Source: an uncultured Bacteroidota bacterium | GTDB lineage: Bacteria; Bacteroidota; Bacteroidia; UKL13-3 | Direction: 5' to 3' | NCBI GenBank assembly: GCA_903897855.1 | Contig: CAIUDH010000041.1 | Location: 44,879-108,878, forward strand | DNA length: 64,000 nucleotides | In this document: positions 13,160 through 63,018 of the stretch, piece by piece | Layout of the letters: every line of letters begins with the position of its first letter | How positions within the stretch are numbered: position 1 is the stretch's first letter | Program-made: the position numbers and the translations under genes | Notes under the pieces: model-generated | Databases searched by the model: none | What the model was told of the DNA's origin: nothing | Seen by the model: the letters and a program-made list of their open reading frames with translations, nothing else

Positions 13160-16100
13160 TTACTCTGCTGTCACATCCAATCCTAATCCACGTAATTCAT
13201 GAATTAATACATTAAATGATTCTGGCAATTGTGGTGTTGGCATTGGTTCTCCTTTTACAATAGCCTCATACGATTTTGCACGACCGATAATATCATCACT
13301 CTTAATCGTTAATACTTCCTGTAAAATATTGGATGCACCAAATGCTTCCAATGCCCAAACCTCCATCTCACCAAAACGCTGACCTCCAAATTGTGCCTTA
13401 CCTCCCAACGGCTGCTGGGTAATTAATGAGTATGGCCCTATTGAACGAGCGTGTAACTTATCATCCACCATGTGTCCTAATTTCAACATGTATATGATAC
13501 CTACCGTAGTTTTTTGTTCGAAGCGAACCCCTGTTTGTCCATCGGTTAAATACGTCTGGCAATTTTCGGGTAAGCCTGCTTTTACAATATACTCGGCAAT
13601 TTGTTCTTGTGATGCACCATCAAAAATAGGAGTTGCAAATTTAGTTCCCAACACTTCACCAGCCCAACCCAACATGGTCTCATAAATTTGTCCTAAGTTC
13701 ATACGACTTGGCACACCTAATGGATTTAATACAATATCCACTGGCGTTCCATCTTCTAAGAACGGCATATCTTCGCGAGCTACGATACGGGCTACAACAC
13801 CCTTATTACCGTGGCGACCCGCCATCTTATCCCCTACTTTCAATTTACGTTTGGTAGCGATATATACTTTAGCCATCTGCACAATACCGGTAGGTAATTC
13901 ATCCCCTACTGTTAGTGCAAATTCTTCACGACGGTATTTACCAACCAAGTCATGTGCCGTACGACGGTAGTTAACGAGGATATCACGAATTAAAATATTT
14001 TTATCTTTATCGGTAGTCCAGGCCGTAGGATTCGTTAAATCATAATCAAGCTCAAACAAAGCTTTTTGTGTGAATTTAACCCCTTTACCTATTAACTCCT
14101 GCTCATAAACATCATACACACCTTGCGATGTCTTTCCGTTTAGCAAAGTCATCAATTTCTCCACCAAACGCTCTTTTAACTTCGCTAAGTTTTTGCTATG
14201 CGTATCGGCTAATTTTGAAGTAACAACCTTCTCTTGATCTTTGGTAAGCTTATCTTTTTTGATTTTTGTGAAAAGCTTTTTGTCGATGATGATACCATTG
14301 GTTGATGGAGGAGCTTTTAATGAAGCATCTTTCACATCGCCTGCTTTATCACCAAAGATAGCACGTAATAACTTTTCTTCCGGTGAAGGTTCTGTTTCTC
14401 CTTTCGGAGTAATTTTACCAATAAGGATATCGCCTTCATGCACTTGCGCACCGATACGAATTAATCCGTTCTCATCGAGGTTACGTGTAGCTTCTTCACT
14501 CACATTCGGAATATCGTTGGTTAGCTCTTCTTCACCACGTTTTGTATCACGCACTTCCAATTCGTATTCTGTAACATGAATAGAAGTAAACACATCTTCC
14601 TGCACTGCTTTTTCACTAATCACGATCGCATCTTCAAAGTTAAAACCTTGCCAAGGCATGAATGCCACTTTTAGGTTCCTTCCTAAAGCTAATTCACCAA
14701 GTTCGGTAGCATAACCTTCAATGATTACTTCACCTTTCTTAATTTTATCGCCTTTCTTTACAAGAGGGCGTTGATTTACGCAGGTATTCTGATTCGTACG
14801 TTTGAATTTTGTCAAATGATATGTTTTCATTTCACCATCAAAATTCAATAATTCCTCTTCAGCGGTGAGGTTATAACTAACCACCACTTTTTCCGCATCA
14901 GCATATTCTACTTCACCATTACCTTCGGCCACCACTACGGCGCGGCTATCTCTAGCCACACGACCTTCCAGTCCGGTTCCAACGATAGGCGATTGTGGTT
15001 TCAATAATGGCACAGCCTGACGTTGCATGTTCGATCCCATCAAAGCACGGTTCGCATCATCATGTTCCAAAAATGGAATTAAGGAAGCTGCGATACTTAC
15101 AATTTGGTTCGGTGCAATATCCATATACTGCGCTTCTTCGGGCGATATCGACGGGAAGTCACCATCTTTACGAGCACGTACTCTTTCGGTTAAGAAATTT
15201 CCTTTCGCATCATATTTAGAGTTCGCTTGTGCAATTGTTTTTCCATCTTCATCTTCCGCACTCACATAAATCACAGGCTCATCCACTTTCACTTTACCAT
15301 TCACAATTTTACGATACGGAGTTTCAATGAAACCCATACCATTTACTTTAGCATGAACACAAAGTGAAGAGATCAAACCGATATTCGGGCCTTCCGGAGT
15401 TTCAATGGTACATAAGCGACCATAATGTGTATAATGTACATCTCGCACCTCAAAACCTGCACGCTCTCTGCTCAAACCACCAGGGCCTAACGCCGACATA
15501 CGGCGTTTGTGTGTAATCTCAGCCAATGGATTGGTTTGATCCATAAACTGCGATAGTTGAGAAGTTCCGAAAAATGAATTGATAACAGAGGATAAAGTAC
15601 GGGCATTAATCAAATCGGAAGGGTTGAACACCTCATTATCACGAATGTTCATACGCTCACGAATGGTACGGGCCATACGTGCCAAACCTACCCCAAACTG
15701 AGCAAAAAGTTGCTCACCTACGGTACGCACACGACGATTACTTAAGTGGTCAATATCATCCACATCGGCTTTATCATTACTTAATTTAATTAAGTTTTTG
15801 ATGATATCGATGATGTCGTCTTTGGTTAATACACGGCTTTTCTCGTCAACTTTATTAAGCTTGCGATTAATACGGTAGCGACCTACTTCTCCTAAATCAT
15901 AACGTTTATCAGAGAAGAACAGACGCTCAATAACACCACGCGCAGTTTCCTCATCGGGCGCATCGGCATTACGCAACTGGCGGTAGATAAGCTCGATTGC
16001 TTCTTTTCCGTTGTTGGACGTATCTTTTTGTAACGTATTATGAATGATGGCAAAGTCATTCGATTTACTTTCTTCTTTATGTAAAATAATAGTTTGAACT

Positions 16101-16963
16101 TTAGCTTCTAATATCGTATCGATATGCTCCTCTTTCAAGTCAACATCACGCTCAATTAAAACCTCATTACGTTCAATAGATACTACTTCACCGGTATCTT
16201 CATCAACAAAATCTTCAACCCAGGTACGTAAAACCCGTGCTGCTAATTTTCTACCTACGGCATTCTTCAATCCCGACTTAGAAACTTTAATTTCTTCGGC
16301 AAGATTGAAAATATTTAAAATATCCTTATCGCTTTCAAAACCAATGGCACGGAATAAAGTAGTTACCGGGAATTTCTTTTTACGATCGATATAAGCATAC
16401 ATCACGTTATTAACGTCGGTAGCGAATTCAATCCAAGAACCTTTGAATGGGATGATACGAGCCGAATATAGTTTTGTACCGTTGGTATGATAGCTTTGAC
16501 CAAAGAACACTCCAGGTGAACGATGTAGTTGCGAAACAACCACACGCTCAGCACCGTTGATAACAAAAGTACCTTTGGAAGTCATGTAAGGAATGTTACC
16601 TAAGTAAACGTCCTGTACAATGGTTTCAAAATCTTCATGATCTTTATCAGTACAAAACAATTTGAGTTTTGCTTTCAGAGGTACATTATAGGTTAATCCT
16701 CTGTCCATACATTCTTCGATGCTGTATTTAGGAGGATCTACAAAGTAGTCGATGAATTCCAGTACGAAAATACCACGTGTATCAGAGATAGGGAAATTCT
16801 CCATGAACACCTTGTACAGTCCTTGCGATTTTTTATTTTCTGTCGATGCATCGAGTTGAAAGAACTCTTTGTACGACTGGATTTGCACATCTAAAAAGTC
16901 GGGGTAGTCGATTACTTTCTCTACCGATGCAAAACTGATACGATTGATGGATTTAGTTGCCAA
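13160..16963 (-). CDS. rpoB: DNA-directed RNA polymerase beta subunit
   Basis: Full-length 1267-aa RpoB with unmistakable conserved blocks (N-terminal [22 protein letters not shown]-terminal [24 protein letters not shown]...[18 protein letters not shown]). Confidence 0.97.
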
Positions 16964-17337: not shown

Positions 17338-17853
17338 TCAATGGCTTGAATCTAAAATCATTTCTTTTAAATCCACCTCAATGCTTGATTTAACAGATTC
17401 TACCACTTTCCCAATTTCTTTACCGTCTTTGTAAACAATAATCGTGGGCACCTTTGAAAGCATATTTTTGTCCGCTTCTCCTTTTAGTGATTTTTTATTT
17501 CGGTCGACCCCGTATAAAACTACAGCAGATTCAGGAAATTGTGCCTCATCAAGCACCCGATAAAATTTAGGAAGGAGATTCTGTGTGTCATCGCACCAGG
17601 TACCCGCAAAAACGACAAACGTCACTCTGGCGTTATATGCCTTCAAATACAAAATATCCGTATTCGCTGCAGTATTATAACTATCGTAATTTTTTTTGAA
17701 CCAAGGAAATTTGTCATCGTTAAGCTGCTTACGTTTAATTCCACCTACGAGTATCTTCTCATTTCTGTCGGTAGTAATCCATTTATACGATTTGCTGCAG
17801 CTCATACTCACAAGTGAGAACATGGCGATTACGATAATTGTTTTGGGTAACAT
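17338..17853 (-). CDS. Thioredoxin-fold (TlpA-like) lipoprotein
   Basis: Signal peptide with LVSMSC. FAGTWCDDTQNLLPKF at the usual Trx active-site position, though with a single Cys. Confidence 0.6.
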   Translation of the reverse strand: MLPKTIIVIAMFSLVSMSCSKSYKWITTDRNEKILVGGIKRKQLNDDKFPWFKKNYDSYNTAANTDILYLKAYNARVTFVVFAGTWCDDTQNLLPKFYRVLDEAQFPESAVVLYGVDRNKKSLKGEADKNMLSKVPTIIVYKDGKEIGKVVESVKSSIEVDLKEMILDSSH

Positions 17854-33803: not shown

Positions 33804-36704
33804 CTAATATCCGAAATATCTGAATGCGGCCCAATAATAGGGTTGTTTGTAGGTTTCTCCGAATACACCAGCAATAAAATGTTGCCTGGTAATATGTAAA
33901 GCTTCAGAATAACTTTTCTTGTCGTTGAAAACCGACTTGTAAAAATCGGACATAAATATACCTGTTGCTTTATCATCTACTTTCCACCACGAAGCGATAA
34001 CCGCATTGGCTCCGGCTAAAAAAAAAGCCACCGGTAAATTATTTACTTCCTGTGACTGATCAGGAAGGCCCGCTGCTGTTTCACAGGCTGAAAGGCACAC
34101 CAATCCGGCATTAAGATGCAAGTTGGCTATTTCATTGAAGAGCAGAAACCCATCCTCTTTATTGCCTGCTTTCTCGGTTAATACCAAGGAGTTGTCACGA
34201 TAATTATTGAGTGAGACCATTCCATGAACAGCAAAATGCAAAATATCGTAATCCATGAGTTTATTAGAATCACTTAATTCTTTCAGTCGGCTTTCAGAAA
34301 GGCGATCTTCATCAAGGATCACTACTTCAGGCAGCAAATTTCTGATGGCCGACAATTCATTTTTTGTACCAGGCAAATCACCCCAGTTGGCGTATCCATC
34401 CTCTGCAAAATCATACCCCCGGCCTTTAGAGTTATGCGGATTAAACTTACTATAAGCGGCATTACCCAAGGCAAGCATCCTACCATGATTAGTTTTTGAT
34501 TTGGCCTTTAATAAATGAAACACGGTGAAAGAAGGCTCGTATACAATATTGTATAAACTTCCAAGATATTCTCCCTTTTCATTTTTTAAGGTCTCAAAGG
34601 GAATTAAGATGCTTCCGTAATCACCGGAGATGTAAATTGTTTTTTTGTTCTGCAGTATCTTTTCAAATGGTTTGATATAAATATAGTAAAGGATCTCATT
34701 AAATGCAGCCATTTCAGCTTTGGTATCCCGTTTCCTTTCCGGCTCTATGATACTTGCACCTCTAACATTGCCATGTTGCATCAGGTTGTTTAAGTTAGTC
34801 GCAATAATGAAAAGTAGCTTACTGCTTGTTTTGATTTCTTCTGTAGTTAAAATTTTCTCTACTTGTTGCATCGCCATATTTAGTTGGTTTGCCAGTGAAT
34901 CAATATTTAGCTCTTCATGATTCTTAAGTAATTTGTTCAACAGCGCGTGGTCTTCTTTTACGAGCATAACAGTATCATGACTTATAGCGAGGCCGAAAGC
35001 CAGTCCACTTAGACTCGACTTTGAAAATGTAATTGCCACTTCATCGCTTTTGAGTTCTGATGACAGTTTCTTAATACTGATAGTTTCGAGCGGACAGCAG
35101 GTTTTAGTTAGTTTAGGGAAAAATGCGTTGGCTCTCGATTCTTCCGTAAGTTTAAACAATTCGTCATTTTTTGTTTTCATTAATGCCATTTTTTCGAGTA
35201 GCGCAAACGCAGGATAAATGTCGGTTAAAGGCTTGTAAAGCAACTCGGAATTGTTTTTTACATAATTTAAATAATGTTCTATAGCCCGGTTGAGATAATA
35301 CTCAGCACTGTCTGTTTGCTTCAACCCATAGTATGACATTCCCGTAATTTCAAGCAAATTAGATATATCAATGTCAGCATAATTTTCGTAATTCGTAATA
35401 AACAATCTACTCATTGAGATGCATTCTTTATACTTTCCTATACTATTCAGAAACTGACAATAATTATAGTCGTCAAAAAACTCATCAACCGGCTGAGGGT
35501 GTTTCTCTGCATTTAATTTCTTACCTAGCCTATAATAATATTCAACAGAATCGAGCTCTTTCTTGTCACCAAAGATGACCATCAGTTTCCCTGTTGATAA
35601 GCTTTTTGCATCGGTAAGGCTACATTGGTTGGCAAGAATAAAAGAGCGTTTAAAATAAAAAAGTGCTGAGTCAGTTTCTGACAAATCAAGGTATTTATTA
35701 CCCATCGAATAATTAATAATAAACTGTTTGTCGAAATTATGAGCAAGCACTGCTAAATCTAAAGCTTGGCGCATTAAAAACATCCCTTCCTTTTCAGAAT
35801 TACCCAATTCATACAACACATCAATGATAAATGCGGTGTCGTTCAGATCTTTGGAAATAGAAAGCGCATTCATGAAATAATCATTGATAGCAATCGTTTT
35901 ACTACCCGTGTTATAATAAATCCATCCTAGGTCCCAGTAAAAGTCACGTAAAGTATAAAGCCGTAAACTTTGATTTTTTTGGTCTTCGACAATGAATTTT
36001 TCTTTCAATCTAATTATCACCTCATCGGTAGCCTCATAGTCGCCAGCAATGGTAAACTGATAGATAGAATCAAGAATTTCATTTCCGAATTTTTTATTTG
36101 AATATTGGTTATTCAAATAATCAGTAAAACTATATTTAAGTGTGCTCAATTTATACGGGTAATCTCCTTGCTGCTCAAAGAAGTTTAAATCGGCCATCAT
36201 ACTCTCTTCAAAAGCTTCGGCATTCGGAATATAATTCATTGCTCTATGAAAGTATTCCTGAAGTTTTCTCGGCTGCTTCAAATACGCATAGATATACCCC
36301 AGATTTAGATAGATAGAATAGTTGCAACTATTATATTTTAAGGCTTTAAGACAATATTTCTCGGCTCTGGCATATTTCTTATCTAATAACAAAAACCATC
36401 CTGTACTATTCCAATAATTCGCATTCTTTGGTGAGAGACGAATCAATCGATCGCCGTATTCAACCGCTACTCCATAATTTTTTAATTTGTAGTAATTATG
36501 AATTGAATATTCCAACGCCTTGATATTGTCAGGCTCTACAGCTAAAACCTTTTGAAGACCCACCAACGATGCTTCATAATGACCATTATTGAATGCTATA
36601 GTGGAATTCGACAACCATTGCTCAAGGCTGTCGGTTTGTGCTTTCGATAAATTCAATATGGACAACAACACAACGAGGAAAAGATACTTTTTGAAGATCA
36701 TCAT
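33804..36704 (-). CDS. Secreted TPR-repeat protein with a C-terminal CHAT (caspase-like) protease domain
   Basis: Signal peptide (LLSILNLSKAQ). Many TPR-like helices. C-terminal His/Cys dyad context LHFAVHGMV ... GLVCLSACETAAG, typical of CHAT. Confidence 0.8.
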   Translation of the reverse strand: MMIFKKYLFLVVLLSILNLSKAQTDSLEQWLSNSTIAFNNGHYEASLVGLQKVLAVEPDNIKALEYSIHNYYKLKNYGVAVEYGDRLIRLSPKNANYWNSTGWFLLLDKKYARAEKYCLKALKYNSCNYSIYLNLGYIYAYLKQPRKLQEYFHRAMNYIPNAEAFEESMMADLNFFEQQGDYPYKLSTLKYSFTDYLNNQYSNKKFGNEILDSIYQFTIAGDYEATDEVIIRLKEKFIVEDQKNQSLRLYTLRDFYWDLGWIYYNTGSKTIAINDYFMNALSISKDLNDTAFIIDVLYELGNSEKEGMFLMRQALDLAVLAHNFDKQFIINYSMGNKYLDLSETDSALFYFKRSFILANQCSLTDAKSLSTGKLMVIFGDKKELDSVEYYYRLGKKLNAEKHPQPVDEFFDDYNYCQFLNSIGKYKECISMSRLFITNYENYADIDISNLLEITGMSYYGLKQTDSAEYYLNRAIEHYLNYVKNNSELLYKPLTDIYPAFALLEKMALMKTKNDELFKLTEESRANAFFPKLTKTCCPLETISIKKLSSELKSDEVAITFSKSSLSGLAFGLAISHDTVMLVKEDHALLNKLLKNHEELNIDSLANQLNMAMQQVEKILTTEEIKTSSKLLFIIATNLNNLMQHGNVRGASIIEPERKRDTKAEMAAFNEILYYIYIKPFEKILQNKKTIYISGDYGSILIPFETLKNEKGEYLGSLYNIVYEPSFTVFHLLKAKSKTNHGRMLALGNAAYSKFNPHNSKGRGYDFAEDGYANWGDLPGTKNELSAIRNLLPEVVILDEDRLSESRLKELSDSNKLMDYDILHFAVHGMVSLNNYRDNSLVLTEKAGNKEDGFLLFNEIANLHLNAGLVCLSACETAAGLPDQSQEVNNLPVAFFLAGANAVIASWWKVDDKATGIFMSDFYKSVFNDKKSYSEALHITRQHFIAGVFGETYKQPYYWAAFRYFGY

Positions 36705-40820: not shown

Positions 40821-41936
40821 ATGTTAAGGCGGCTCATTCTTATTATCATCGTTCTAATTATTAAATCAGATATCGGCAGCGCACAAGGATGCTGCTCCGG
40901 TGGAAGTGGCAGCCCTATTGCAGGCGGTGCTTCTCCAGGAGTATTGGGTTATCAGCAGATGGAACTGGCGACTAATTTCCAGTACATCAACAGCGATAAG
41001 TTTAAGGCAGGAAAAAAAGATACTGTTTCACTGTTCGACAATTACAATAGTAAATACCTCTACTCCAAAGTGGCTTACGGCCTCACCAAAGAATTAACCT
41101 TCTCGGTGGAGATGGGATACTTTTTTAATAAAACTCAAATAGGATTAGATAAAAGTGAAACCATTAATACCTCTGGCGCTGGCGACCTCATCCTATTCCC
41201 TCGATACAACTTATATACTAAAGTAGATTCGACGAAACGATGGGATATAACCATTGGAATGGGTTATAAAATCCCTCTTGGGAAACATGATGCTACCACC
41301 TTGGCCTCAACCAATTTTCTGACCGGTGAAAAACTCTACAAAATTGCACCACCGTTGGTTCAGGCGACCACCGGTTCGCACGATTTTATTTTTTATGGCT
41401 TCGTACTTAGAGGATTTCCGAAACAAAATTTGAAGTTGTTTGCCAACGTCACCTATATTGCAAAAGGATGGAATTCATTGGGAGAGAAGTTTGGCAACTA
41501 CTCCAATCTGGGCCTATTTGTAAGTAAAACCTTGAACAAAAAAATTGGACTAACCCTTCAAGTTAAAGGCGAACAGATCGCAAAAATGAGGCAAGCAAAT
41601 ACCGTGGATCTTCTGGCCTTATATAATGTTGATAACGCTTCCACCGGAAATAAGAGAGTGATGGTTGTACCACAAATTTCTTATAGCTTAAAAAATATCA
41701 CCTTCTATGGCCTCTATGAAATACCTATCTATGAATATGTGTATGGAAGCCAGGTAGTGACTCAAACTCAATTGACGGTGGGATTATCGTACCGTTTTTT
41801 TACCACAAAAAATCCCGTTTGTCCACCTAACTCGAATATAACCTATTATGAATGTCCGATGAAATGTGAGGGGAGCAAGAGTACCCTGCCAGGAAAATGC
41901 AGGGAATGCGGCATGGACTTGCAAAAGGTTAATTAA
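40821..41936 (+). CDS. Predicted outer-membrane beta-barrel protein with a C-terminal heavy-metal-binding domain (CPM...GKC..CGMDL)
   Basis: Signal peptide. Alternating amphipathic beta-strand pattern ending in aromatic residues (SYRFF). C-terminal YYECPMKCEGSKSTLPGKCRECGMDLQKV resembles the HMBD found on Cu-ATPases and CusB-like proteins. 10 nt after the upstream gene. Confidence 0.55.
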   Translation: MLRRLILIIIVLIIKSDIGSAQGCCSGGSGSPIAGGASPGVLGYQQMELATNFQYINSDKFKAGKKDTVSLFDNYNSKYLYSKVAYGLTKELTFSVEMGYFFNKTQIGLDKSETINTSGAGDLILFPRYNLYTKVDSTKRWDITIGMGYKIPLGKHDATTLASTNFLTGEKLYKIAPPLVQATTGSHDFIFYGFVLRGFPKQNLKLFANVTYIAKGWNSLGEKFGNYSNLGLFVSKTLNKKIGLTLQVKGEQIAKMRQANTVDLLALYNVDNASTGNKRVMVVPQISYSLKNITFYGLYEIPIYEYVYGSQVVTQTQLTVGLSYRFFTTKNPVCPPNSNITYYECPMKCEGSKSTLPGKCRECGMDLQKVN

Positions 41937-42169: not shown

Positions 42170-43489
42170 ATGAAAAAGTTATTCCTTTTACTATGCTTAT
42201 GCTTGGCCTCTCCCCTGCTCACCCAAGCACAAAGGCCAATTTTTACCAAACCCTTAGTAGGCACTGCTGCTCGATTCGAGGCCAAATTTAGTTCAGTTGA
42301 AACAACGCCTGAACAAACAGAGAGTTTACTTCAAATATACGACAGCGTGTTTAGTTGGCCTTGGGACAAGAACACCAGTCAGTGGAAAGTGAGCCCTGCA
42401 CAAAAATTTATTAATATTGTTTATAACGCGAACAAGAAAATGGTGAGCTATTTAGGTATCATTGGGGATGGCACGACCTATGTGAACGATGCAAAAACGA
42501 CCAATACCTATGACGCGAATAATAATCAGACCACTTCCATAGAGGAGTCCTGGATTGCAGGTGCTTGGACGAATTTGAATAAACTTATTTATACCTACGA
42601 TGCCAATAAAAATATGCTTACCTTCATCTCACAAAACTGGGTAAGTGCTGCTTGGGTTAATCTAGATAAAACAAGTTACACCTATGATGCCAATAATAAC
42701 CTGCTTATTGAATTATATCAAAGCTGGAATGGCACCTCTTGGGATAATCAGTTTAGAAGAAATTATCTCTATAATGCCAGTAATAAACGCATTCTGGAAA
42801 TTGCACAGCTTGGGGCAACCACCTGGGCAGATTACAGTAAAGACACTTTTATTTACGATAATAAAAATAATTTAATAACCGACCTCAATTTTTTCTGGGA
42901 TGGAACGGATTGGCTAGCTCAAGACAGATACTTGTTTACCTATGATGCCAACAATAATAAGATTACTGAATTAACTCAGAACTGGAATGGCACGGTATGG
43001 AGCGACATGTCGAAATATACGAGCACCTACGACGCCAATAAAAATTTACTGAGCGTGTTACAGCAAAGTTGGAACGGCACTCTTTGGCAAAATTACAACC
43101 TAAACAAGTCGACCTATGATGCCAATAACTTTATGAAAAGCACGTGTTATAAATACTATGATAATGCAGGCATCTCCATCCTATCGGGCGACAGCTTTTA
43201 CTACTACTTTCATACCGCAGTGAATGGAATAAACACCCCAACAAATGCATCTACGAGGTTCCATATTTACCCTAACCCAATGCTAACGATGTCGACCATT
43301 TATCTCGACAAGTCGATTAAAAATGGTCTTCTCACCGTGGTTGATATTGCAGGAAAGGAAATGCAATCCATCCGTTTTAGTGGCCAACGCGTAGACATCA
43401 AAAAGGAAGCAATGCCAGAAGGAATTTATTTTGTACGAATTCTTGATGAAAACAGCCAAATTGTAACAAGTAAAATGATCGTCAGATAA
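42170..43489 (+). CDS. T9SS-sorted secreted repeat protein (about 8 TYDANNN-type repeats of roughly 28 aa)
   Basis: Signal peptide. Repeated xYTYDAN(N/K)NxxxxxxQxWNGxxWxN units. C-terminal IYPNPM...GIYFVRILDENSQIVTSKMIVR Por CTD. Confidence 0.6.
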   Translation: MKKLFLLLCLCLASPLLTQAQRPIFTKPLVGTAARFEAKFSSVETTPEQTESLLQIYDSVFSWPWDKNTSQWKVSPAQKFINIVYNANKKMVSYLGIIGDGTTYVNDAKTTNTYDANNNQTTSIEESWIAGAWTNLNKLIYTYDANKNMLTFISQNWVSAAWVNLDKTSYTYDANNNLLIELYQSWNGTSWDNQFRRNYLYNASNKRILEIAQLGATTWADYSKDTFIYDNKNNLITDLNFFWDGTDWLAQDRYLFTYDANNNKITELTQNWNGTVWSDMSKYTSTYDANKNLLSVLQQSWNGTLWQNYNLNKSTYDANNFMKSTCYKYYDNAGISILSGDSFYYYFHTAVNGINTPTNASTRFHIYPNPMLTMSTIYLDKSIKNGLLTVVDIAGKEMQSIRFSGQRVDIKKEAMPEGIYFVRILDENSQIVTSKMIVR

Positions 43490-43565
43490 AATAACATTTA
43501 AGACCGATAGCCTACCAGGATTAGGGTTGTACCTAATTGTTCGCCAATTTATAATATTTAAGAAA

Positions 43566-45557
43566 ATGAGCCAGCCCTTCGACCCGGAGTTGAATTACGA
43601 GTTAAGTAAAAAAGCCATTGGATATGTAACTAGAAAAGAGGCCACCCAAGCCGATTATGACCGAATCGGTTTTATGTCGGGTTTGGAAGTACACCAGCAG
43701 TTACTCACGATACGCAAACTTTTCTGTCGCTGTCCTGCCGGTAAATTCAATTCTCACGACGATTACGATGCTGAGATAGTTCGACATATGCGTCCTACCC
43801 TGAGTGAGCTGGGAGAGTATGATGGTACCGCCTTGATGGAGTTTAAAACGCGAAAGAACATCGTTTATCGTATCAAAAACGAAACTGCATGCACCTATGA
43901 AATCGACGATACCCCGCCCTTTCCTATCGACCCTGTAGCACTTCAGATTGCATTAGAAGTTTCTATTTTAAACAAGATGAATATTGTAGGTGAAGTGCAT
44001 ATCACCCGCAAACAATATCTCGATGGTAGTATTCCTGGAGGCTTTCAACGTACTGCCATCATTGGTGTAGGAGGCAAGATTCAATTACATCACAAAATCA
44101 TCAATCTCATCCAATTAAGTATTGAAGAAGATTCGAGTCGGGAAATTTCTGATGTGGGGCATCTCCGCGTTTATAAAACCGATCGACTTGGCATGCCGCT
44201 AATTGAAACGGTTACACAGCCTGAGTTTTTAAACCCTGATGAAGTAAAGGAAGGGGCCGATTATATTCGTTTCCTGAATCGAAGCACCGGAAAGGTAAGA
44301 ACCGGAATTGGTTCTACCCGAGCCGACGTGAATGTAAGTTGCCGTGGAGGCACACGGGTCGAAATTAAAGGGGTTGCTCATACCCGATGGATGCCCGATC
44401 TTACCCATAACGAATGCTTTCGTCAATGGGCCTTGGTGCATATCATTAAACTCTTGAATGAGAAAATAGGTGATGTTGCACAATGGGCCTTACGCACCGT
44501 AAAAATAAATCCTGAAGAGCACGATTTTAGCTACGAACCGCTACAAAAAGCGTGTGAAGAAAAACAGCCCATCATCGCCCTCTGCCTGCCCGGCTTCCAG
44601 GGAATCCTCTCCCATTTTACCCAACCGAAACAAACATTTGCCGATGAAATATCGACGCGACTGAAAGTGATTGCCTGTCTCGAAAAACCCAATATGATCC
44701 ATTCGGAAAATCTTCAACAGCTCCTCTCCGAATCAGAAATAAATAAGTTGAGTAAACTGCTCTCGTGCAAAACAGAGGATGCCTGGATACTTCTTTGGGG
44801 ACCCCAAGAAGATATGGCTACAGCGATAGAAACTGTTGAGGAGAGATGCAAGATGGCATTTCATTGCATTCCCAATGAGACCCGTAAATCGCTTCAGGAT
44901 GGTTGTACCACCATCTTCGAACGAGTGCTCCCTGGCGCCGATCGAATGTACCCGGATACGGACTCTGCCCCGATCCCATTCAAAAATGAGACGATCGAAG
45001 AAGTGAGAAAACAAATACCCATGGATGTATTCGATCGTATTCAGCAGCTGAAAGCCTGGGGCGTGCCCACGGATACCTTCACTTATATACTCAAAAAAAA
45101 TCTGGTGCCCCTCATCGAAAAAATGCATGATGAATTAAAAATTCATCCTCGTTTTTCAGGAACTTTTATGGGACATACCATCAAGTTTATCGAAAATAAT
45201 TATTCCCGATCCCCGGAATTTGAATACTCGAAAGTGTTCGAACTGTTTCAATTTCTTATTGACAAGCAACTGAATCTGAACCTCGCTGAAAAGATGTTCT
45301 TAGAATATTATCGGGCACCAAAACTAGATTTCAATGCCATCCTCCTCAACATTAATTTCAAAATCGTTTCCAAAAAAGAGATCGATAGCAAGATACCCTT
45401 GATGAAAGAAACATTTGACAGAATTCGAATTTCCAAAGCCATAAACTCAACTAGTCAATGGATTATGGGACAAGTAAAAGAAATGGCTTTAGGCAATATG
45501 AACCTGTCCGAACTAAAAGCTCAGATTGATGGGGAGGGTAATTCAAATCATAACTAA
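43566..45557 (+). CDS. gatE: GatE-like protein (archaeal-type Glu-tRNA(Gln) amidotransferase subunit E homolog)
   Basis: N-terminal GLEVHQQL...KLFCRCP matches the GatE signature (GatB has HVQL/HVEL and lacks the RCP context). A length of about 660 aa is consistent with the GatE insertion domain. It is followed 8 nt later by a GatD-like gene. The supplied ORF starts at 43527. Confidence 0.7.
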   Translation: MSQPFDPELNYELSKKAIGYVTRKEATQADYDRIGFMSGLEVHQQLLTIRKLFCRCPAGKFNSHDDYDAEIVRHMRPTLSELGEYDGTALMEFKTRKNIVYRIKNETACTYEIDDTPPFPIDPVALQIALEVSILNKMNIVGEVHITRKQYLDGSIPGGFQRTAIIGVGGKIQLHHKIINLIQLSIEEDSSREISDVGHLRVYKTDRLGMPLIETVTQPEFLNPDEVKEGADYIRFLNRSTGKVRTGIGSTRADVNVSCRGGTRVEIKGVAHTRWMPDLTHNECFRQWALVHIIKLLNEKIGDVAQWALRTVKINPEEHDFSYEPLQKACEEKQPIIALCLPGFQGILSHFTQPKQTFADEISTRLKVIACLEKPNMIHSENLQQLLSESEINKLSKLLSCKTEDAWILLWGPQEDMATAIETVEERCKMAFHCIPNETRKSLQDGCTTIFERVLPGADRMYPDTDSAPIPFKNETIEEVRKQIPMDVFDRIQQLKAWGVPTDTFTYILKKNLVPLIEKMHDELKIHPRFSGTFMGHTIKFIENNYSRSPEFEYSKVFELFQFLIDKQLNLNLAEKMFLEYYRAPKLDFNAILLNINFKIVSKKEIDSKIPLMKETFDRIRISKAINSTSQWIMGQVKEMALGNMNLSELKAQIDGEGNSNHN

Positions 45558-45565
45558 GACAACCT

Positions 45566-46951
45566 ATGAACGACAATATTTTTCAAGGATATAAAGGAAA
45601 TGCACTCGCTATATTGCAAAAATATACTGCCCGTGTATGGGCGGCCGTCGATATCGACACTTCCAGAGGCTTATTTCAAGGCACTATTTTGCCTCGAGCC
45701 GAGAACACCGATGAAGAGCATATCGTACTGAAAATTATTACCGGATATAATATTGGTGTAGAGGTAAATACCATCACCGAAATTCGTGAAACGGGATATA
45801 AAAAGGCAAACTATCAAATACCTGAAAAAAAATTCCCAGTCACGGCCGGATTGCCTAATGTAAAACTTTTCGGAACTGGTGGCACTATTGCCTCACGCCT
45901 CGACTATCGCACTGGCGCTGTGATCCCAGCCTTTTCTCCGGGCGAACTCTATGGTGCTGTGCCCGAATTAGCTGATATCTGCAATTTAGATACGGAGAAA
46001 ATATTTGCCGTGTTCAGTGAAAATATGGGGCCCAAACAATATCTTGAGCTTGCCCATGCCATTGTAAAAGAAATACGTAATGGCATCGATGGTATCGTTA
46101 TTGGCCATGGCACTGATACTTTGCAGCATACCGCTGCGGTGCTTACCTATATGGTTCGTAACTCACCGGTGCCCATCATTTTGGTAGGCTCTCAACGCTC
46201 CTCCGACCGACCCAGCTCCGATGCTGCCTTAAATCTTATGCACGCTATGTTTACGGCAGGCACCTCCGATATTGCAGAGGTGATGGTATGTATGTTCGGC
46301 CCCACCTCCGATGAATATGGGCTATTGCATCGCGGAACTCGTGTACGAAAAATGCATTCTTCCTATCGTTCTACCTTTCGCACTATAGGCGATACGCCAG
46401 TGGCGATGGTAACGCGTAAAAGTATTACTCCAATAAAAAAAGAATATAACCACCGCAGAAAAGATACAGAGGTAGAACTCTATCCTTTTTTTAGCGAGAA
46501 AGCCACCATGCTCTATTATTATCCTGGTATGAAACCGGATGTGATGTTTGCGATGATTGATGCGGGTTATAAAGGAATAATTATTGTTGGCACCGGCCTT
46601 GGACACGTGAATAAAGAGCTTTACCCCGCTCTCGTAAGAGCGAAAGAAGAAGGCGTGTGTGTGTTTATGGTGGTGCAAACCATCTGGGGTTTTGTACATA
46701 TGTTTGTGTATGACACCGGTCGCGATATGATGGCCAAAGGCGTCGTACCTTTAGGAAATATGCTTCCTGAAACCGCTTATATAAAATTAGGATGGGTGCT
46801 GGGACAAACGGAGGACCCTGCCGAAATAAAGAAGATGATGCTCACGCCCATTTGCTCCGACATTACCGAAAGAGAGCCTTATAATGGCTATTTAGTACTC
46901 CAAGGGGGCGTGCCTGAAGTGGATGAATTTATCAGGAAAGTACATAAATAA
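45566..46951 (+). CDS. gatD: GatD-like protein (asparaginase-fold subunit D of the archaeal-type amidotransferase)
   Basis: A non-asparaginase N-terminal domain of about 100 aa precedes LFGTGGTIASRLDYRTGAVIPAF and GIVIGHGTDTL. Length and motif placement fit GatD rather than 330-aa type I asparaginase. Confidence 0.7.
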   Translation: MNDNIFQGYKGNALAILQKYTARVWAAVDIDTSRGLFQGTILPRAENTDEEHIVLKIITGYNIGVEVNTITEIRETGYKKANYQIPEKKFPVTAGLPNVKLFGTGGTIASRLDYRTGAVIPAFSPGELYGAVPELADICNLDTEKIFAVFSENMGPKQYLELAHAIVKEIRNGIDGIVIGHGTDTLQHTAAVLTYMVRNSPVPIILVGSQRSSDRPSSDAALNLMHAMFTAGTSDIAEVMVCMFGPTSDEYGLLHRGTRVRKMHSSYRSTFRTIGDTPVAMVTRKSITPIKKEYNHRRKDTEVELYPFFSEKATMLYYYPGMKPDVMFAMIDAGYKGIIIVGTGLGHVNKELYPALVRAKEEGVCVFMVVQTIWGFVHMFVYDTGRDMMAKGVVPLGNMLPETAYIKLGWVLGQTEDPAEIKKMMLTPICSDITEREPYNGYLVLQGGVPEVDEFIRKVHK

Positions 46952-47188: not shown

Positions 47189-50100
47189 ATGAGCAATGCA
47201 ATAAAAAAAAATAAAAAAAGTCGTGAGGAAAAAATATTCACGAGAGTTACTAAAACGAGAGATTTTCCTATTGTGGGTATCGGTGCTTCTGCGGGAGGTT
47301 TGGAGGCATTAGAAAGTTTTTTTGGCGCCATGCCTAATGACCCTGGAATGGCTTTCGTAGTGATTCAGCATCTCGACCCCAATTATGTAGGGATGATGCC
47401 TGAGATTTTACAAAGAAGGACTAAAATGAAAGTTTTAGAGGCCACCGATGGCTTAGCCATAGAAACGAATCATGTGTATGTTATTCCTCCTAAGAAGACG
47501 ATGTCGATTCTGAATGCGGTTCTTTTTTTGTTTGAGCCCATCGAATCGCACGGCCTTCGTTTACCGATTGATTATTTTTTCAATTCATTGGCCAACGATA
47601 GGCTCGAAAATAGCATTGGCATTATTCTATCGGGCATGGGTAGCGATGGCTCTTTAGGCTCAAAAGCCATCAAAGCAAAAAACGGCATTCTCCTGGTGCA
47701 AGAGCCTGCTGATGCGAAATATGATAGCATGCCCCAAAGCGTGTTGAATCAATGTGTGGCCGACATTATAGCTCCAGCCATCGAATTGCCTGCAAAACTA
47801 ATTGCCTTTCTAAATCCGAGTGCCCTGGCCCCAGTACTCTCGACACAGAATATTGATAATTTAAGTTCCATCGACAAAATTATTATTTTGCTTCGTACCC
47901 ATAACAAGCACGATTTTTCAATGTATAAAAAGAACACCTTGTTCAGACGTATTGAAAGACGGATGAGTGTTCACCTGATTGAAGGAATAGATAATTATGT
48001 TCGATTTTTAACAGAGAATCCAACAGAGCTGGATATTCTTTTCAAAGAATTATTAATTGGAGTGACTAGTTTTTTTAGAGATCCCTTAGTTTGGGAAATG
48101 TTCATAAACACCATTCTCCCTGATTTATTTAAAATCCGCCCCAACGGACATGTTTTTCGAGCATGGATTCCAGCTTGTTCTACAGGTGAGGAAGCCTATT
48201 CATTGGCAATTGCTTTTAAAGAAGCATTAGAGAAAGAAAAAGACAGAAAGAATTTTAGCTTGCAGGTGTTTGGGACTGATATTGATAATGATGCCATTGC
48301 CAATGCCCGTAAAGCGGTTTTTAATTCCAATATTGCTTCGGATATTTCTCCAGAGCGTTTAAGCAATTTTTTCACCAAAACGTCAGGAGGTTTTCAAGTG
48401 AAGAGCAATATTCGGGAAATGGTGGTGTTTGCCCCTCAAAATGTTATACGCGACCCCCCATTCACCAGACTTGATATTGTCGCCTGCCGAAATATGCTTA
48501 TATATATGGAGCCGGTACTGCAGAAAAAAATCATGGCTTTGTTTCATTATAGTTTAAATGTTGATGGTATAATGCTATTAGGCAGTGCCGAGAGCAATAA
48601 CACCAATGATTTATATTTTAGTGTCATCGACTCAAAATTAAAATTCTACAAACGCTCCGAAACTTCTGCAATCGCTGAATTGGTTGATTTTCCCAGTGCT
48701 TACACCTATAAAAAAGCAGAATTGGTAGCAGAACTTAAAACTGAAAACAGTACTCCGAATATTCAATTGCTGGCTAATGAGTATATACAGCAAAACTATT
48801 CTCCTGCCAGTTTACTAATTAATGCCGATGGCGACATCCTCTTTATTTCTGGAAAAACAGGCAAATATTTAGAGCCGGCTGCAGGCAAAGCAAACTTGAA
48901 CATTTTTGCGATGGCTCGTGAGGGTTTAGGAACACCCCTTATAGGTGCCATCCGAAGAGCAAAGCAAAATTATGAACCGCAAATTTTGCATGGTGTGAAA
49001 GTGGGCCCACCAGACACTTCGAAATACGTTGATATCACTGTTCAACATATCGAAAAACCAGAAGCGATGAGAGGAAAACTCATGGTCGTTTTTAGCGAAT
49101 CTCATTTCTCGGTTAAATCGGAACGAAAACCAATAACCTCAAAAAACGCAACAGCTAATTTACGTGAGGAAGAATTAGAACACGAACTCTTGATGGCCAA
49201 TGAAGATCTTCAATGCGCGCGGGAAGAAATGCAGGCTACACAAGAAGAGTTAAAATCGACCAACGAGGAGTTGCAATCATCGAATGAGGAGATGCAGTCG
49301 ACCAACGAGGAACTAACGACCAGCAAAGAAGAAATGCAGAGTCTGAACGAAGAACTACAGACTATGAATACGGAGATGCAAAACAAATTAACCGAGTTCG
49401 TGCAGGCAAACAACGATATGAAAAACCTGCTGAACAGTACTGATATTGCCACTTTGTTTTTAGACAGAGACCTAAATATTCGACGCTATACTGATCAGAT
49501 AACGAAAATCATTAGACTTCGCCCTACCGATATAGGCAGGCCCTTTACCGACTTAATTTCAACACTGAGGTATCCGGAAATAGAAAAAGATGCAAGAAAG
49601 GTGTTACAAACGCTCATTTTTATAGAAACCTATATTGCCACCATTGACGAACGCTGGTTTGCCGTAAAAATCATGCCCTATCGTACCGTTGAAGACCGTA
49701 TTGATGGACTCGTTCTCACTTTTATTGACATTTCCAGTTCGAAAAAGATGGAAGGGAAATTATTGATTGCCAACAATGAACTATTGTTGCAGAATAAAGC
49801 AAAACTACAACGGGCCAATGAATTGGCAATTGCCAATAAAGAGCTTGCCTTTCAAAATAAGGAAAAACAAAAACGGGCCAATGAATTAATCATTGCCAAT
49901 AAAGAGCTTGCCTTTCAAAATAAGGAAAAACAAAAACGGGCCAACGAATTGGCAATGGCCAATAAAGAGCTTGCGGTACAAAACAAAGAAAAACAAAAAC
50001 GAGCCCTCGAATTGTCTGTTGCGTATAAAAAGCTTACGGTGCAAAACAATGAAAAGGCAGCACGTGAAAGCGCCTTGGTGATTGCTAATAAAGAACTTGC

Positions 50101-50305
50101 GTTACAAAACAAAGATAAACAAAAACGGGCCGACGAATTAATTATCGCCTATAAAGAACTTGCTTTACAGTATAAAGAAAAACAAAAACGAGCAGATGAA
50201 TTAATCATCGCCAACAAAAAGCTTTTAATTGATCAAAAAGCAAAGAAAAAAATCGAAGCCGAATTAGAAAAAACAAAAAATGCACTAAAGAAATTTAAAG
50301 TATAA
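47189..50305 (+). CDS. CheB methylesterase / CheR methyltransferase fusion protein with a PAS region and a C-terminal repetitive coiled coil
   Basis: N-terminal CheB-like VGIGASAGGLEALESFF...VIQHL. Central CheR-like FFRDPLVWEMF...RAWIPACSTGEEAYSLAIA. C-terminal 21-aa repeats ANKELAFQNKEKQKRANEL. Confidence 0.8.
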   Translation: MSNAIKKNKKSREEKIFTRVTKTRDFPIVGIGASAGGLEALESFFGAMPNDPGMAFVVIQHLDPNYVGMMPEILQRRTKMKVLEATDGLAIETNHVYVIPPKKTMSILNAVLFLFEPIESHGLRLPIDYFFNSLANDRLENSIGIILSGMGSDGSLGSKAIKAKNGILLVQEPADAKYDSMPQSVLNQCVADIIAPAIELPAKLIAFLNPSALAPVLSTQNIDNLSSIDKIIILLRTHNKHDFSMYKKNTLFRRIERRMSVHLIEGIDNYVRFLTENPTELDILFKELLIGVTSFFRDPLVWEMFINTILPDLFKIRPNGHVFRAWIPACSTGEEAYSLAIAFKEALEKEKDRKNFSLQVFGTDIDNDAIANARKAVFNSNIASDISPERLSNFFTKTSGGFQVKSNIREMVVFAPQNVIRDPPFTRLDIVACRNMLIYMEPVLQKKIMALFHYSLNVDGIMLLGSAESNNTNDLYFSVIDSKLKFYKRSETSAIAELVDFPSAYTYKKAELVAELKTENSTPNIQLLANEYIQQNYSPASLLINADGDILFISGKTGKYLEPAAGKANLNIFAMAREGLGTPLIGAIRRAKQNYEPQILHGVKVGPPDTSKYVDITVQHIEKPEAMRGKLMVVFSESHFSVKSERKPITSKNATANLREEELEHELLMANEDLQCAREEMQATQEELKSTNEELQSSNEEMQSTNEELTTSKEEMQSLNEELQTMNTEMQNKLTEFVQANNDMKNLLNSTDIATLFLDRDLNIRRYTDQITKIIRLRPTDIGRPFTDLISTLRYPEIEKDARKVLQTLIFIETYIATIDERWFAVKIMPYRTVEDRIDGLVLTFIDISSSKKMEGKLLIANNELLLQNKAKLQRANELAIANKELAFQNKEKQKRANELIIANKELAFQNKEKQKRANELAMANKELAVQNKEKQKRALELSVAYKKLTVQNNEKAARESALVIANKELALQNKDKQKRADELIIAYKELALQYKEKQKRADELIIANKKLLIDQKAKKKIEAELEKTKNALKKFKV
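49813..50220 (+). repeat. About 6.5 tandem copies of a 63-bp coding repeat within the CheB/CheR fusion gene
   Basis: GCCAATGAATTGGCAATTGCCAATAAAGAGCTTGCCTTTCAAAATAAGGAAAAACAAAAACGG is repeated near-identically and degenerates toward the 3' end. Confidence 0.7.
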
Positions 50306-59925: not shown

Positions 59926-61317
<1,392 letters not shown>

Positions 61318-61330
61318 TTAAAATTATTTT

Positions 61331-62704
61331 TTAATTAATAGGAGCTAATTTAGCCGTAAAATGGCGCAAAATAGGCGCTTCTTCGATTATTTTTAGTCCT
61401 GATACTTTAGCCCGATTATTGAAAGCTTCAATCACCACCTCCGCCACATAATCAATATGGCTCTGTGTGTAAACTCTTCTTGGAATAGCCATACGAACCA
61501 ATTCCATCTGCGCCGGAATTAATTTTCCATCAGTATCATATTTGCCAAACATCAAAGAACCAATTTCTACACTACGTATCCCTCCTACTAAATACAAGGC
61601 ACCTACCAAGGCTTGGCCTGGATATTGATCAACGGGGATATGTGGGAAAAAAGCTTTGGCATCAATATACACGGCATGGCCTCCTGCAGGCTGCATCACC
61701 GGTACACCCGCCTCAATTAATTTGTTCGTGAGATATTCGATACTGCGGATTCGGTAGTTTAAATAGTTTTCATCCATCACCTCATTGAGTCCAATGGCAA
61801 TCGCTTCCAAATCTCTGCCAGCCAATCCTCCATACGTAGGAAACCCTTCCATCACCACCAACAGATTCCTACAACTTAAAGCCAACGATTCATTACGCAT
61901 CGCCAGAAAACCTCCGATGTTCGCAAAGGCATCTTTCTTGGCACTCATGGTACAGCCATCAGCATAAGAAAATAACTCTTTCGCAATTTCAGGCACCGAT
62001 TTATTGGCATATCCTGCTTCACGTATTTTGATGAAATAACTGTTCTCGGCAAACCGACACGCATCAATAAATAATGGAATCTTATGCTCCTTGCAAACGG
62101 CACTCACCTCTCTAATATTTTGCATGCTTACCGGCTGTCCGCCACCCGAATTGTTGGTCACCGTAATTACACAAAGTGGGATGTTGGATGCTCCTTTTTC
62201 GGCAATGAAATTTTTCAATAAGTTCACATCCATATTGCCTTTGAAAGGCGCCGGAATCGATGGATGTTTGCCTTCTTCACATAATAAATCAACCCCTTCG
62301 GCACCCGAGAATTCGATATTCGCTCGAGTGGTATCGAACAAGGTATTACTCACAAAATATTTGCCTTTGCCTCCCAGAATGCTGAATAAAATTTTCTCGG
62401 CCGCTCTACCTTGGTGTGTAGGTATTACCAATGGCATACCCGTGATGTTTTGAATGGTTTCTTCGAAACGAAAGAAACTGGGACTCCCGGCATACGACTC
62501 ATCGCCCTGCATAATACCAGCCCATTGGTTACTGCTCATGGCACTCGTGCCACTGTCGGTAAGTAAGTCGATGATGACGTCTTTGGAGTGAATAAGAAAA
62601 GGATTGTAAAATGCCTTTTCTAAGATGGCCACCCGCTCTTCGGGGGTATTAAAGTAGATAGGCTCTACCGATTTTATTTTAAATGGTTCAATAATAGTTT
62701 GCAT
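61331..62704 (-). CDS. Beta-eliminating lyase (tryptophanase/tyrosine phenol-lyase family), paralog 2
   Basis: [54 protein letters not shown]. Tandem with paralog 1, with a 22-nt spacer. The supplied ORF starts at 62752. Confidence 0.85.
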   Translation of the reverse strand: MQTIIEPFKIKSVEPIYFNTPEERVAILEKAFYNPFLIHSKDVIIDLLTDSGTSAMSSNQWAGIMQGDESYAGSPSFFRFEETIQNITGMPLVIPTHQGRAAEKILFSILGGKGKYFVSNTLFDTTRANIEFSGAEGVDLLCEEGKHPSIPAPFKGNMDVNLLKNFIAEKGASNIPLCVITVTNNSGGGQPVSMQNIREVSAVCKEHKIPLFIDACRFAENSYFIKIREAGYANKSVPEIAKELFSYADGCTMSAKKDAFANIGGFLAMRNESLALSCRNLLVVMEGFPTYGGLAGRDLEAIAIGLNEVMDENYLNYRIRSIEYLTNKLIEAGVPVMQPAGGHAVYIDAKAFFPHIPVDQYPGQALVGALYLVGGIRSVEIGSLMFGKYDTDGKLIPAQMELVRMAIPRRVYTQSHIDYVAEVVIEAFNNRAKVSGLKIIEEAPILRHFTAKLAPIN

Positions 62705-63018
62705 GAAAAATTTATGATTAAAATTATGATTTTGAAAAAAATAGAAGGTCATGGTGCTTGGCAGCCCCTAATTAAGATGGTCTTTTGATGATATTTTTCC
62801 AAAGAATCATGGCGCGAAGTTGCCTTATTTGAAGCAAACAAAATATGACTATAGTCATGCCATCAAAATCAAGCATCCTTTCGGCCAACTTAATATATGA
62901 AGAAGCACCCCAATATTTAACATCTTTGAAATAAATAGTTTTAATAAAAGTATTTGAATGCTTTTATTAAAACTATTTATTTATCTTTGTCCCGTTAAAA
63001 AAAAATAACCTATTTATC

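Follow-up and report, generated by a model that had tools for sequence, protein, structure and literature searches.

A gatE-gatD operon for an archaeal-type tRNA-dependent amidotransferase in an uncultured Bacteroidota bacterium and its bacterial relatives

Background

A 64,000-nt stretch of contig CAIUDH010000041.1 from an uncultured Bacteroidota bacterium (the window, which here means the whole stretch of DNA analysed) carries two adjacent genes, gatE and gatD, whose products resemble the subunits of the tRNA-dependent amidotransferase GatDE. Reviews of 2008, 2020, 2021 and 2022 describe GatDE as an archaeal amidotransferase (PMC2330236, PMC8007984, PMC9499178, PMC8762117), and three of them are explicit, calling it 'an archaeal signature protein' or stating that it is found 'only in archaea' or 'exists exclusively in archaea'. 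The route expected in bacteria is GatCAB. The supposed archaeal restriction underlies arguments about why archaea never acquired glutaminyl-tRNA synthetase (GlnRS), about the co-evolution of tRNA(Gln) identity with the amidotransferases and about the presence of both GatCAB and GatDE in the last common ancestor of all life (LUCA). The locus raises the question of whether a bacterium genuinely encodes GatDE and, if so, where the enzyme came from and what it does there. No report of a bacterial GatDE was found in the full-text literature searched, a collection whose coverage leaves out most subscription journals.

Results and discussion

Identification of GatE

The GatE signature GLEVHQQL...KLFCRCP and the asparaginase-core sequence GTGGTIASRLDYRTGAV, from which a preliminary description of the window had named the two genes, were both found in the window translations. 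The gatE product passed the TIGR00134 equivalog of NCBIfam (377.2 bits versus a cutoff of 319.55, E 1e-112) and fell marginally under the cutoff of NF003107 (450.2 versus 456 bits), while all GatB models failed, with 37-101 bits against cutoffs of 315-680 (the best being 101 versus 338). Among the structures of the Protein Data Bank (PDB) its sequence matched GatE of M. thermautotrophicus (2d6f_C, E 7e-80) and of P. abyssi (1zq1_C, E 8e-73, residues 29-640 covered), with GatB chains reaching only about 1e-14. For structural comparison an AlphaFold2 (AF2) model was used that was built from a 55-sequence alignment and had a predicted local distance difference test score (pLDDT) of 85.7 and a predicted template modelling score (pTM) of 0.83; an earlier model from a shallow 29-sequence alignment (pLDDT 60.7) was discarded. 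Foldseek ranked 1zq1_C (top match, E 2e-41) and 2d6f first for the model, at E ~1e-41 and with template modelling (TM) scores of 0.76-0.82 normalised to the target, and GatB chains appeared at 1e-22 or worse.

The presence of an insertion resembling that of aspartyl-tRNA synthetase (AspRS), which GatB lacks, was supported in several ways. The Pfam GatB_N model of 277 positions was stretched across 441 residues of GatE (38-478), and an insertion of about 160 aa is therefore implied. The Pfam GAD match at residues 327-418 is weak (E 3.5e-4, 21.2 bits, under the gathering score), the alignment runs through the insertion of both archaeal structures, 2d6f_C and 1zq1_C, and the domain was modelled confidently, its weak and partial Foldseek matches to AspRS being consistent with an insertion domain. 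The earlier estimate of about 660 aa including such an insertion agrees with these results and with the length of 663 aa. The neighbour of the gene is also that of a gatE, being gatD and not gatA or gatC.

His43, Glu187 and Glu214 are invariant in 81/81 Bacteroidota GatE. Their counterparts in M. thermautotrophicus GatE, His15, Glu157 and Glu184, are Mg2+ ligands whose mutation inactivates the enzyme (PMC2330236). Curated hidden Markov models, matches to solved structures and the fold all agree, and on the evidence of sequence and model the protein is GatE, not GatB, as had been proposed.

Identification of GatD

GatD passed both of its NCBIfam equivalogs, TIGR02153 (485.9 bits, cutoff 324) and NF003217 (490.4 bits, cutoff 310). 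The architecture assigned to it in the preliminary description, an N-terminal domain preceding an asparaginase core, was borne out by Pfam, with PF18195 GatD_N at residues 28-74 followed by PF00710 (98-288) and PF17763 (315-425), which make up the core of 98-425. The protein aligned end to end with 1zq1_A (E 9e-117) and 2d6f_A (E 4e-112), and free asparaginases in PDB matched at 1e-36 or weaker. Thr107 (TGGTIAS), Thr183-Asp184 (HGTDT) and Lys262 (RKMH) are invariant in 52/52 Bacteroidota GatD; the roles of the nucleophilic Thr and of the Thr-Asp-Lys triad are taken from PMC2330236.

Type I L-asparaginase (AnsA) has the same fold and the same catalytic residues as the GatD core, and the window GatD also passes the corresponding subfamily model TIGR00519 (359 bits versus a cutoff of 260.5). 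Unlike that enzyme, however, it carries GatD_N, is linked to gatE in an operon and scores much higher on its own equivalogs (486-490 bits). Its full-length identity to archaeal GatD is about 45%, and free asparaginases score about 130 bits or less. The profile comparison with GatB and AnsA models that had been suggested earlier came out in favour of GatDE, since TIGR00134 and both GatD equivalogs were passed and the GatB models were not.

Organization of the locus

The two genes form one operon, and the distance between them is the one that had been reported (Table 1). Both open reading frames (ORFs) described for the 43527-46951 stretch are present. The first of them is one long ORF spanning 43527-45557, for which TTG 43527 was not upheld as the start of gatE; ATG 43566 is favoured because the N-termini of homologues begin with MxxxFDP and because the gene called on sibling contigs has a product of 663 aa. 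The promoter is presumed, from position, to lie in the gap upstream of gatE; a sigma-70-like match found at 43463-43492 by the promoter scan of this region was weak and no better than in shuffled sequence.

Table 1. Coordinates of the gatE-gatD operon and of its parts in the window
Feature	Position	Strand	Remarks
Presumed promoter and 5' untranslated region, intergenic, upstream of gatE	43490..43565	+	AT-rich 76-nt gap after the stop codon of a type IX secretion system (T9SS) cargo gene
gatE, tRNA-dependent kinase/amidotransferase subunit E	43566..45557	+	663 aa; NCBIfam, PDB matches, AF2 model
Conserved N-terminal extension, GatE residues 1-29	43566..43652	+	Bacteroidota-specific; alignment, model
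Codon of His43	43692..43694	+	Ligand of Mg2+, counterpart of His15 in M. thermautotrophicus GatE; alignment
Codon of Glu187	44124-44126	+	Equivalent to M. thermautotrophicus Glu157; alignment
Codon of Glu214	44205-44207	+	Equivalent to M. thermautotrophicus Glu184; alignment
AspRS-like (GAD-type) insertion domain, GatE residues ~295-433	44448..44864	+	Separates GatE from GatB
C-terminal helical tail, GatE residues 474-663	44985..45554	+	Probably homologous to the YqeY-like tRNA D-loop-binding domain; motif remodelled
gatE/gatD spacer, operon junction	45558..45565	+	8 nt
gatD, glutaminase/asparaginase subunit D	45566..46951	+	461 aa; NCBIfam, PDB matches, Pfam

Comparison with archaeal GatDE and with GatCAB

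The window proteins have the two subunits and the domain architecture of archaeal GatDE (M. thermautotrophicus 2D6F, P. abyssi 1ZQ1), namely a GatE composed of cradle, AspRS-like insertion and a helical tail resembling the YqeY-like one, and a GatD composed of an N-domain and a type I asparaginase core. The catalytic residues are the same and the fold matches at E ~1e-41, with identities of 44-46% for GatD and about 30-35% for GatE. The window enzyme differs from the archaeal one in its bacterial host, in belonging to a separate monophyletic bacterial clade and in its tRNA substrate, which must be a bacterial tRNA; Bacteroidota GatE, in addition, starts with ~29 extra residues and has no RG[K/R] motif in its tail. 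GatCAB follows the same reaction logic, in which tRNA-bound Glu or Asp is phosphorylated and then amidated with channelled ammonia, and GatB and GatE are paralogs with a common cradle domain and YqeY-like tail (PMC2330236). The ammonia-donor subunit of GatDE is the asparaginase-fold GatD, whereas that of GatCAB is the amidase-fold GatA, and GatDE contains no GatC.

Bacterial host of the operon

The host of gatE-gatD is a bacterium of Bacteroidota. Bacterial RpoB, IF-2, NusA, MnmE, NadA and NadB are encoded in the window, and the T9SS cargo, HmuY and TonB-dependent receptor mentioned in the preliminary description were all confirmed, the receptor together with HmuY and the cargo as many proteins with T9SS C-terminal sorting domains. 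The uniform codon usage noted there was also confirmed: G+C content overall (GC) and at third codon positions (GC3) as well as codon usage of gatE and gatD are native, being indistinguishable from those of the 28 other genes analysed.

An identical GatE is encoded on 19 contigs, the longest of 299 kb, that were assembled independently; they are shown from two ENA samples, with further listed contigs carrying two more sample accessions. On all 19 the T9SS cargo gene is followed by gatE and gatD and, further downstream, by the genes for NadA and NadB. Since the same junctions recur on 19 independent assemblies, archaeal contamination and chimera are excluded, in line with what had been supposed from the bacterial genes on the contig. 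More generally, the view that the locus is an artefact, whether through contamination, chimeric assembly or decay into pseudogenes, deserves practically no credence. No point in its support was found, the neighbours are identical in separate assemblies and bacterial core genes lie on the same contig, neither reading frame is broken, none of the catalytic residues varies, and the ratios of nonsynonymous to synonymous substitution rates (dN/dS) relative to the nearest relative, 0.058 for gatE and 0.018 for gatD, are far under 1 and indicate strong purifying selection.

Distribution and gene order of bacterial GatDE

A scan of one genome per GTDB species revealed relatives in at least 310 species-level genomes. 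Details were taken from the best 80, all of which are Bacteroidota; they include Lentimicrobium, Prolixibacteraceae, Marinilabiliales, Marinifilum and metagenome-assembled genomes (MAGs) labelled Chitinophaga or Sphingobacteriia, and four of the 80 loci lie on closed chromosomes. The best 120 database matches were 60-82% identical to the window protein and, where named, came from MAGs of Bacteroidota, Bacteroidia or Bacteroidales, with the exception of one 'bacterium'; some of them are on contigs of 4.09 and 1.8 Mb. When 1.84 billion cluster representatives were searched exhaustively, 582 of them matched at E <=1e-30, and these fell into three tiers: a Bacteroidota representative at 59% identity, a broad group at 40-52% and the classical archaeal GatE at 30-38%. 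When a profile of the middle tier was used as query, every named protein among those retrieved was bacterial, the sources being Calditrichia, candidate division KSB1, Aminicenantes, Latescibacteria, Krumholzibacteria, Ca. Desulfaltia (Desulfobacterota), a 'Clostridiales' MAG and CSSED10-310, one GatE of this tier being encoded on a 5.98 Mb contig.

By sequence, then, the window GatDE is a member of a large bacterial GatDE clade spanning several phyla. The preliminary description had called GatDE an archaeal signature enzyme, which is what the literature says, but the restriction to Archaea is contradicted by the bacterial contig that carries the genes and by homologues in several bacterial phyla and at least 310 genomes of bacterial species. 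The flaw lies in the stated taxonomic restriction and not in the family membership. NCBI and JGI pipelines already label bacterial proteins GatE, and automatic names GatE and GatD exist, so the novelty consists in recognising and interpreting the clade rather than in finding unannotated sequence. What is new here, as far as sequence comparison goes, is a GatDE clade of bacteria that has a gene order of its own and whose Bacteroidota members have a remodelled, presumably tRNA-binding tail.

In the comparison of gene order by lineage gatE was followed by gatD, often with a few-base overlap, in all bacterial loci examined, L085-L087 included. In Bacteroidota gatD is directly downstream of gatE in 52/80 loci, several of the others ending early, and genes for aminoacyl-tRNA synthetases are not linked to the pair. 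In three loci from outside Bacteroidota (Calditrichia, Aminicenantales and the 5.98 Mb contig) the genes overlap or abut in the same order and sit among bacterial core genes, namely those for SecA, DnaA, L28, RecO, FtsX and Fpg. The operon is kept in four bacterial phyla. The two archaeal loci examined are arranged differently: in Heimdallarchaeota (L088 4436-7935) gatD and gatE are divergently transcribed, and in Bathyarchaeia (L089 4644-7902) gatD precedes gatE.

Phylogeny and origin

A GatE tree was constructed by neighbour-joining on distance estimates, with 630 columns and 100 bootstraps. All bacterial GatE formed one clade (100% bootstrap), within which Bacteroidota were monophyletic (100%), and the split between bacteria plus Asgard archaea and the other archaea was recovered in 89% of bootstrap replicates. 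The nearest archaeal representatives belong to Heimdallarchaeota, Hodarchaeales, Thorarchaeota and Odinarchaeota, the best archaeal match being ~35-38% identical to the window GatE; the next relatives of Heimdall GatE itself are TACK archaea (~44% identity). Asgard GatE, which of all archaeal sequences come nearest to the bacterial clade (P0158, 396 bits, 38% identity), share with bacterial GatE a KQYLDGSIPTGFQRT-type motif, but they lie clearly outside the clade, keep the RG[K/R] tail motif and a short N-terminus and, in the Heimdall locus examined, have divergent genes, unlike the bacterial E-then-D order. GatD gave 62-81% identity among bacteria and 43-52% to archaea, Heimdall being marginally the closest. 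The most divergent bacterial subclade is that of Bacteroidota GatE, with 41-45% identity to other bacteria versus 54-57% among the others.

Acquisition by transfer had been offered in the preliminary description as one origin of the pair. As a single uptake by this contig the idea did not survive, and a large monophyletic clade of several phyla took its place. Apart from the fact that the family is known only from archaea in the literature, a recent and isolated horizontal acquisition from an archaeon by this organism has little to recommend it and is highly improbable: the closest relatives (60-82%) are all Bacteroidota, the gene is carried by at least 310 species-level genomes, both bacterial groupings in the tree have full bootstrap support, no archaeal match is closer than the ~35-38% given above, and the composition of the genes is fully ameliorated. 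The clade as a whole may go back, to judge from the tree, to one ancient transfer into bacteria from an Asgard-like archaeon or may reflect very old vertical inheritance. Rooting with three GatB fragments from PDB alignments (177 columns) gave <10% support for either position of the root.

Bacteroidota-specific features of GatE

Residue 2 of M. thermautotrophicus GatE aligns with residue 30 of the window GatE, and the catalytic His, which is at position 43 in 120 Bacteroidota proteins, has a median position of 27 in other bacteria and of 20 in archaea. Residues G19, Y20, R23, A26 and Q28 of the extension are invariant in Bacteroidota, and AF2 predicts it to form a helix (pLDDT 84-97).

The C-terminal tail has the expected length, aligns with that of P. 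abyssi GatE up to residue 640 and is modelled as all-helical (pLDDT ~85-96); the Pfam model PF02637 for the tail gave no match in the window GatE. In both amidotransferases, GatCAB and GatDE, the YqeY-like tail contacts the tRNA D-loop (PMC2330236). The GatE tail motif MG-x2-M-x3-RG[K/R] is replaced in Bacteroidota by W-I-M-G-Q-x4-A-L-G-N, RG[K/R] being present in 0/120 Bacteroidota, 80/117 other bacterial and 93/115 archaeal sequences. The least conserved segments of GatE are residues 521-663 of the tail and part of the insertion region (281-400).

Proposed function

The most economical reading of these data is that gatE-gatD encode a catalytically competent bacterial GatDE which probably works as a Glu-tRNA(Gln) amidotransferase. 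In analogy to archaeal GatDE, two GatE subunits would be bound by a dimer of GatD, and GatE would hold Glu-tRNA(Gln) with its cradle, its insertion and its tail and phosphorylate the gamma-carboxyl group of the tRNA-bound glutamate with ATP and Mg2+. GatD would hydrolyse Gln or Asn, the ammonia would pass through an intramolecular tunnel to GatE, and GatE would form Gln-tRNA(Gln) for translation. Likewise assumed from this analogy are assembly as an alpha2beta2 complex, Glu-tRNA(Gln) as the substrate and, in the host, a glutamyl-tRNA synthetase (GluRS) of the non-discriminating type. The existence of a large monophyletic bacterial clade under strong selection suggests that the enzyme can work with bacterial tRNAs and the bacterial translation machinery.

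According to Table S1 of PMC4206432, a 2014 survey of 547 genera, Bacteroidota are a mosaic of Gln-tRNA routes, some members having gatCAB alone, some glnS alone and some the two together: glnS without gatCAB is the state of cultured Bacteroidales and most Flavobacteriales, Cytophagales mostly have gatCAB without glnS, and Chitinophaga and some others have both. As the phylum is already such a mosaic, a third route is biologically plausible. In the available part of the survey no bacterium was found that is without both gatCAB and glnS, nor did any of the six GatDE-related or sister genera looked up by name appear there. In its host GatDE may be the sole Gln-tRNA route, may replace GatCAB in its role as amidotransferase for Glu-tRNA(Gln) (Glu-AdT) or may be redundant with GlnRS.

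Several points weigh against a working Glu-AdT. GlnRS, GluRS and GatB were not found in the window, in the 10 kb past each of its ends or in 87 related loci (1.3 Mb), which is too small a share of the genomes to judge presence or absence. The tRNA(Gln) of bacteria has a U1-A72 pair. The pair recognised by archaeal GatDE is the A1-U72 of archaeal tRNA(Gln) (PMC2330236). If the host has GlnRS and no GatCAB, as cultured Bacteroidales do in the survey table (PMC4206432), GatDE would duplicate an existing route unless tRNA(Gln) is mischarged by GluRS. Since the Bacteroidota tail is without the RG[K/R] of the D-loop-binding domain, tRNA recognition by Bacteroidota GatE may differ. Finally, gatE occurs without an adjacent gatD in about a quarter of the Bacteroidota loci, and in at least six of them (L023, L024, L027, L057, L076 and L079, all Bacteroidales, two on closed chromosomes) an intact gatE has no gatD within ~10 kb on each side.

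The possibility that GatE is paired with another glutaminase where gatD is not adjacent was considered and is disfavoured by L023, a closed chromosome, in which the genes downstream of gatE are ordinary ones for a CNNM/CBS-type transporter and a PpiD-like protein; gatD is therefore probably merely unlinked there.

Altered tRNA specificity was kept as a rival explanation, chiefly because the tail motif is remodelled and the tail is least conserved. The chemistry would be the same, and the remodelled tail and the N-terminal helix would retarget Bacteroidota GatDE, for example to Asp-tRNA(Asn), so that it would act as an Asp-AdT or dual AdT in lineages without GatCAB, or else to a specialised tRNA isoacceptor. 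The complete loss of RG[K/R] in Bacteroidota from a domain relevant to specificity, where most other bacterial and archaeal GatE keep it, fits this explanation, as do the divergence of the Bacteroidota subclade and the lack of GatCAB in the cultured Bacteroidales of the survey. The same source (PMC4206432) lists asparaginyl-tRNA synthetase (AsnRS) for cultured Bacteroidales, so an Asp-AdT is not obviously needed there. The motifs of the catalytic pocket, moreover, are identical to those of Glu-specific GatE, and M. thermautotrophicus GatDE actively discriminates against Asp-tRNA(Asn) (PMC2330236). No dedicated tRNA gene was linked to the operon either: the tRNAs that ARAGORN detected in 54 loci were all unrelated ones (Arg, Asn, Lys, Met, Val) whose distance varied, and the sole tRNA in the window is tRNA-Ser. 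On balance a changed tRNA is unlikely.

Still less can be said for a role outside translation, which is clearly improbable. The pair would then serve metabolic amidation, tRNA-dependent or -independent (cell envelope, natural product), or would be a regulated asparaginase/glutaminase, and would make no Gln-tRNA for the ribosome. Points in favour are that GatDE should be redundant in a host with GlnRS, which the survey indicates for cultured Bacteroidales, that the two genes are unlinked in about a quarter of the loci, and that the recurrent neighbours in Bacteroidota are ordinary envelope genes (LptD/OstA-like, amidase, MlaD-like). The clustering of flanking ORFs, however, revealed synteny with envelope genes only at the level of orders and nothing common across phyla; no biosynthetic cluster is linked, and the gatE-gatD pair persists despite the differing contexts. 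The full tRNA-binding architecture appears to be kept, and conservation is that of housekeeping genes, GatD being 72-95% identical across Bacteroidota with a dN/dS of 0.018. Glu-tRNA(Gln) amidation remains the favoured function.

Implications

A long-repeated generalisation is contradicted by the bacterial clade, and the co-evolution of amidotransferases with tRNAs and the ancestry of the indirect Gln pathway become directly testable, with function for the present assigned by analogy. The distinct tail motif of Bacteroidota offers a natural experiment on AdT-tRNA co-evolution, and cultivable or near-cultivable hosts are available in Lentimicrobium, Prolixibacteraceae and Marinilabiliales. A third Gln-tRNA route would also have to be added to bacterial genome annotation and metabolic models.

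A more far-reaching proposal, which we regard as doubtful but worth stating, is that GatDE is old and vertically inherited in the Fibrobacteres-Chlorobi-Bacteroidetes (FCB) superphylum, Aminicenantes and some Desulfobacterota, that it is the sole route to Gln-tRNA(Gln) in at least some of them, with neither GlnRS nor the Glu-AdT activity of GatCAB, and that the Bacteroidota tail was re-engineered for bacterial tRNA. If this were true, the status of an 'archaeal signature protein' would be overturned, and inferences about the amidotransferase of LUCA and of the last bacterial ancestor would change.

Other features of the window

A short way upstream of gatE, with a T9SS cargo gene on either side, lies a gene (40821-41936, +) for a predicted outer-membrane beta-barrel-like protein ending in a cysteine-rich heavy-metal-binding domain (HMBD, PF19335). 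Downstream of gatD, 47189-50305 (+) encodes a CheB methylesterase-CheR methyltransferase-PAS fusion of 1038 aa, the C-terminus of which is a long array of ~22-aa 'ANKELAFQNKEKQKRANELII'-type repeats. On a sibling contig from another sample (L084 13387-16489) most of the corresponding sequence is free of gene calls, pointing either to variation driven by the repeats or to a fault in the assembly.

As a rule the rplJL-rpoBC cluster is highly conserved among bacteria. In the window a full-length rpoB (13160-16963, -; TIGR02013, 1837 bits) is isolated: a T9SS cargo gene comes after it instead of rpoC, and a gene for a thioredoxin-like lipoprotein comes before it instead of rplJ-rplL (flanks 11530-12915, +, and 17338-17853, -).

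A gene at 33804-36704 (-) encodes a protein of 966 aa with an N-terminal tetratricopeptide repeat (TPR) region and a CHAT (caspase-like protease) domain, and adjoins a gene for a small PDC sensor-domain protein resembling methyl-accepting chemotaxis proteins (MCP). Two tandem paralogs of beta-eliminating lyases are encoded at 59926-61308 (-) and 61331-62752 (-); one of them, at 758 bits, clears the cutoff of 721 set for the tyrosine phenol-lyase equivalog, and the other belongs to the tryptophanase family (686 bits, subfamily model) and scores under both specific equivalog cutoffs.

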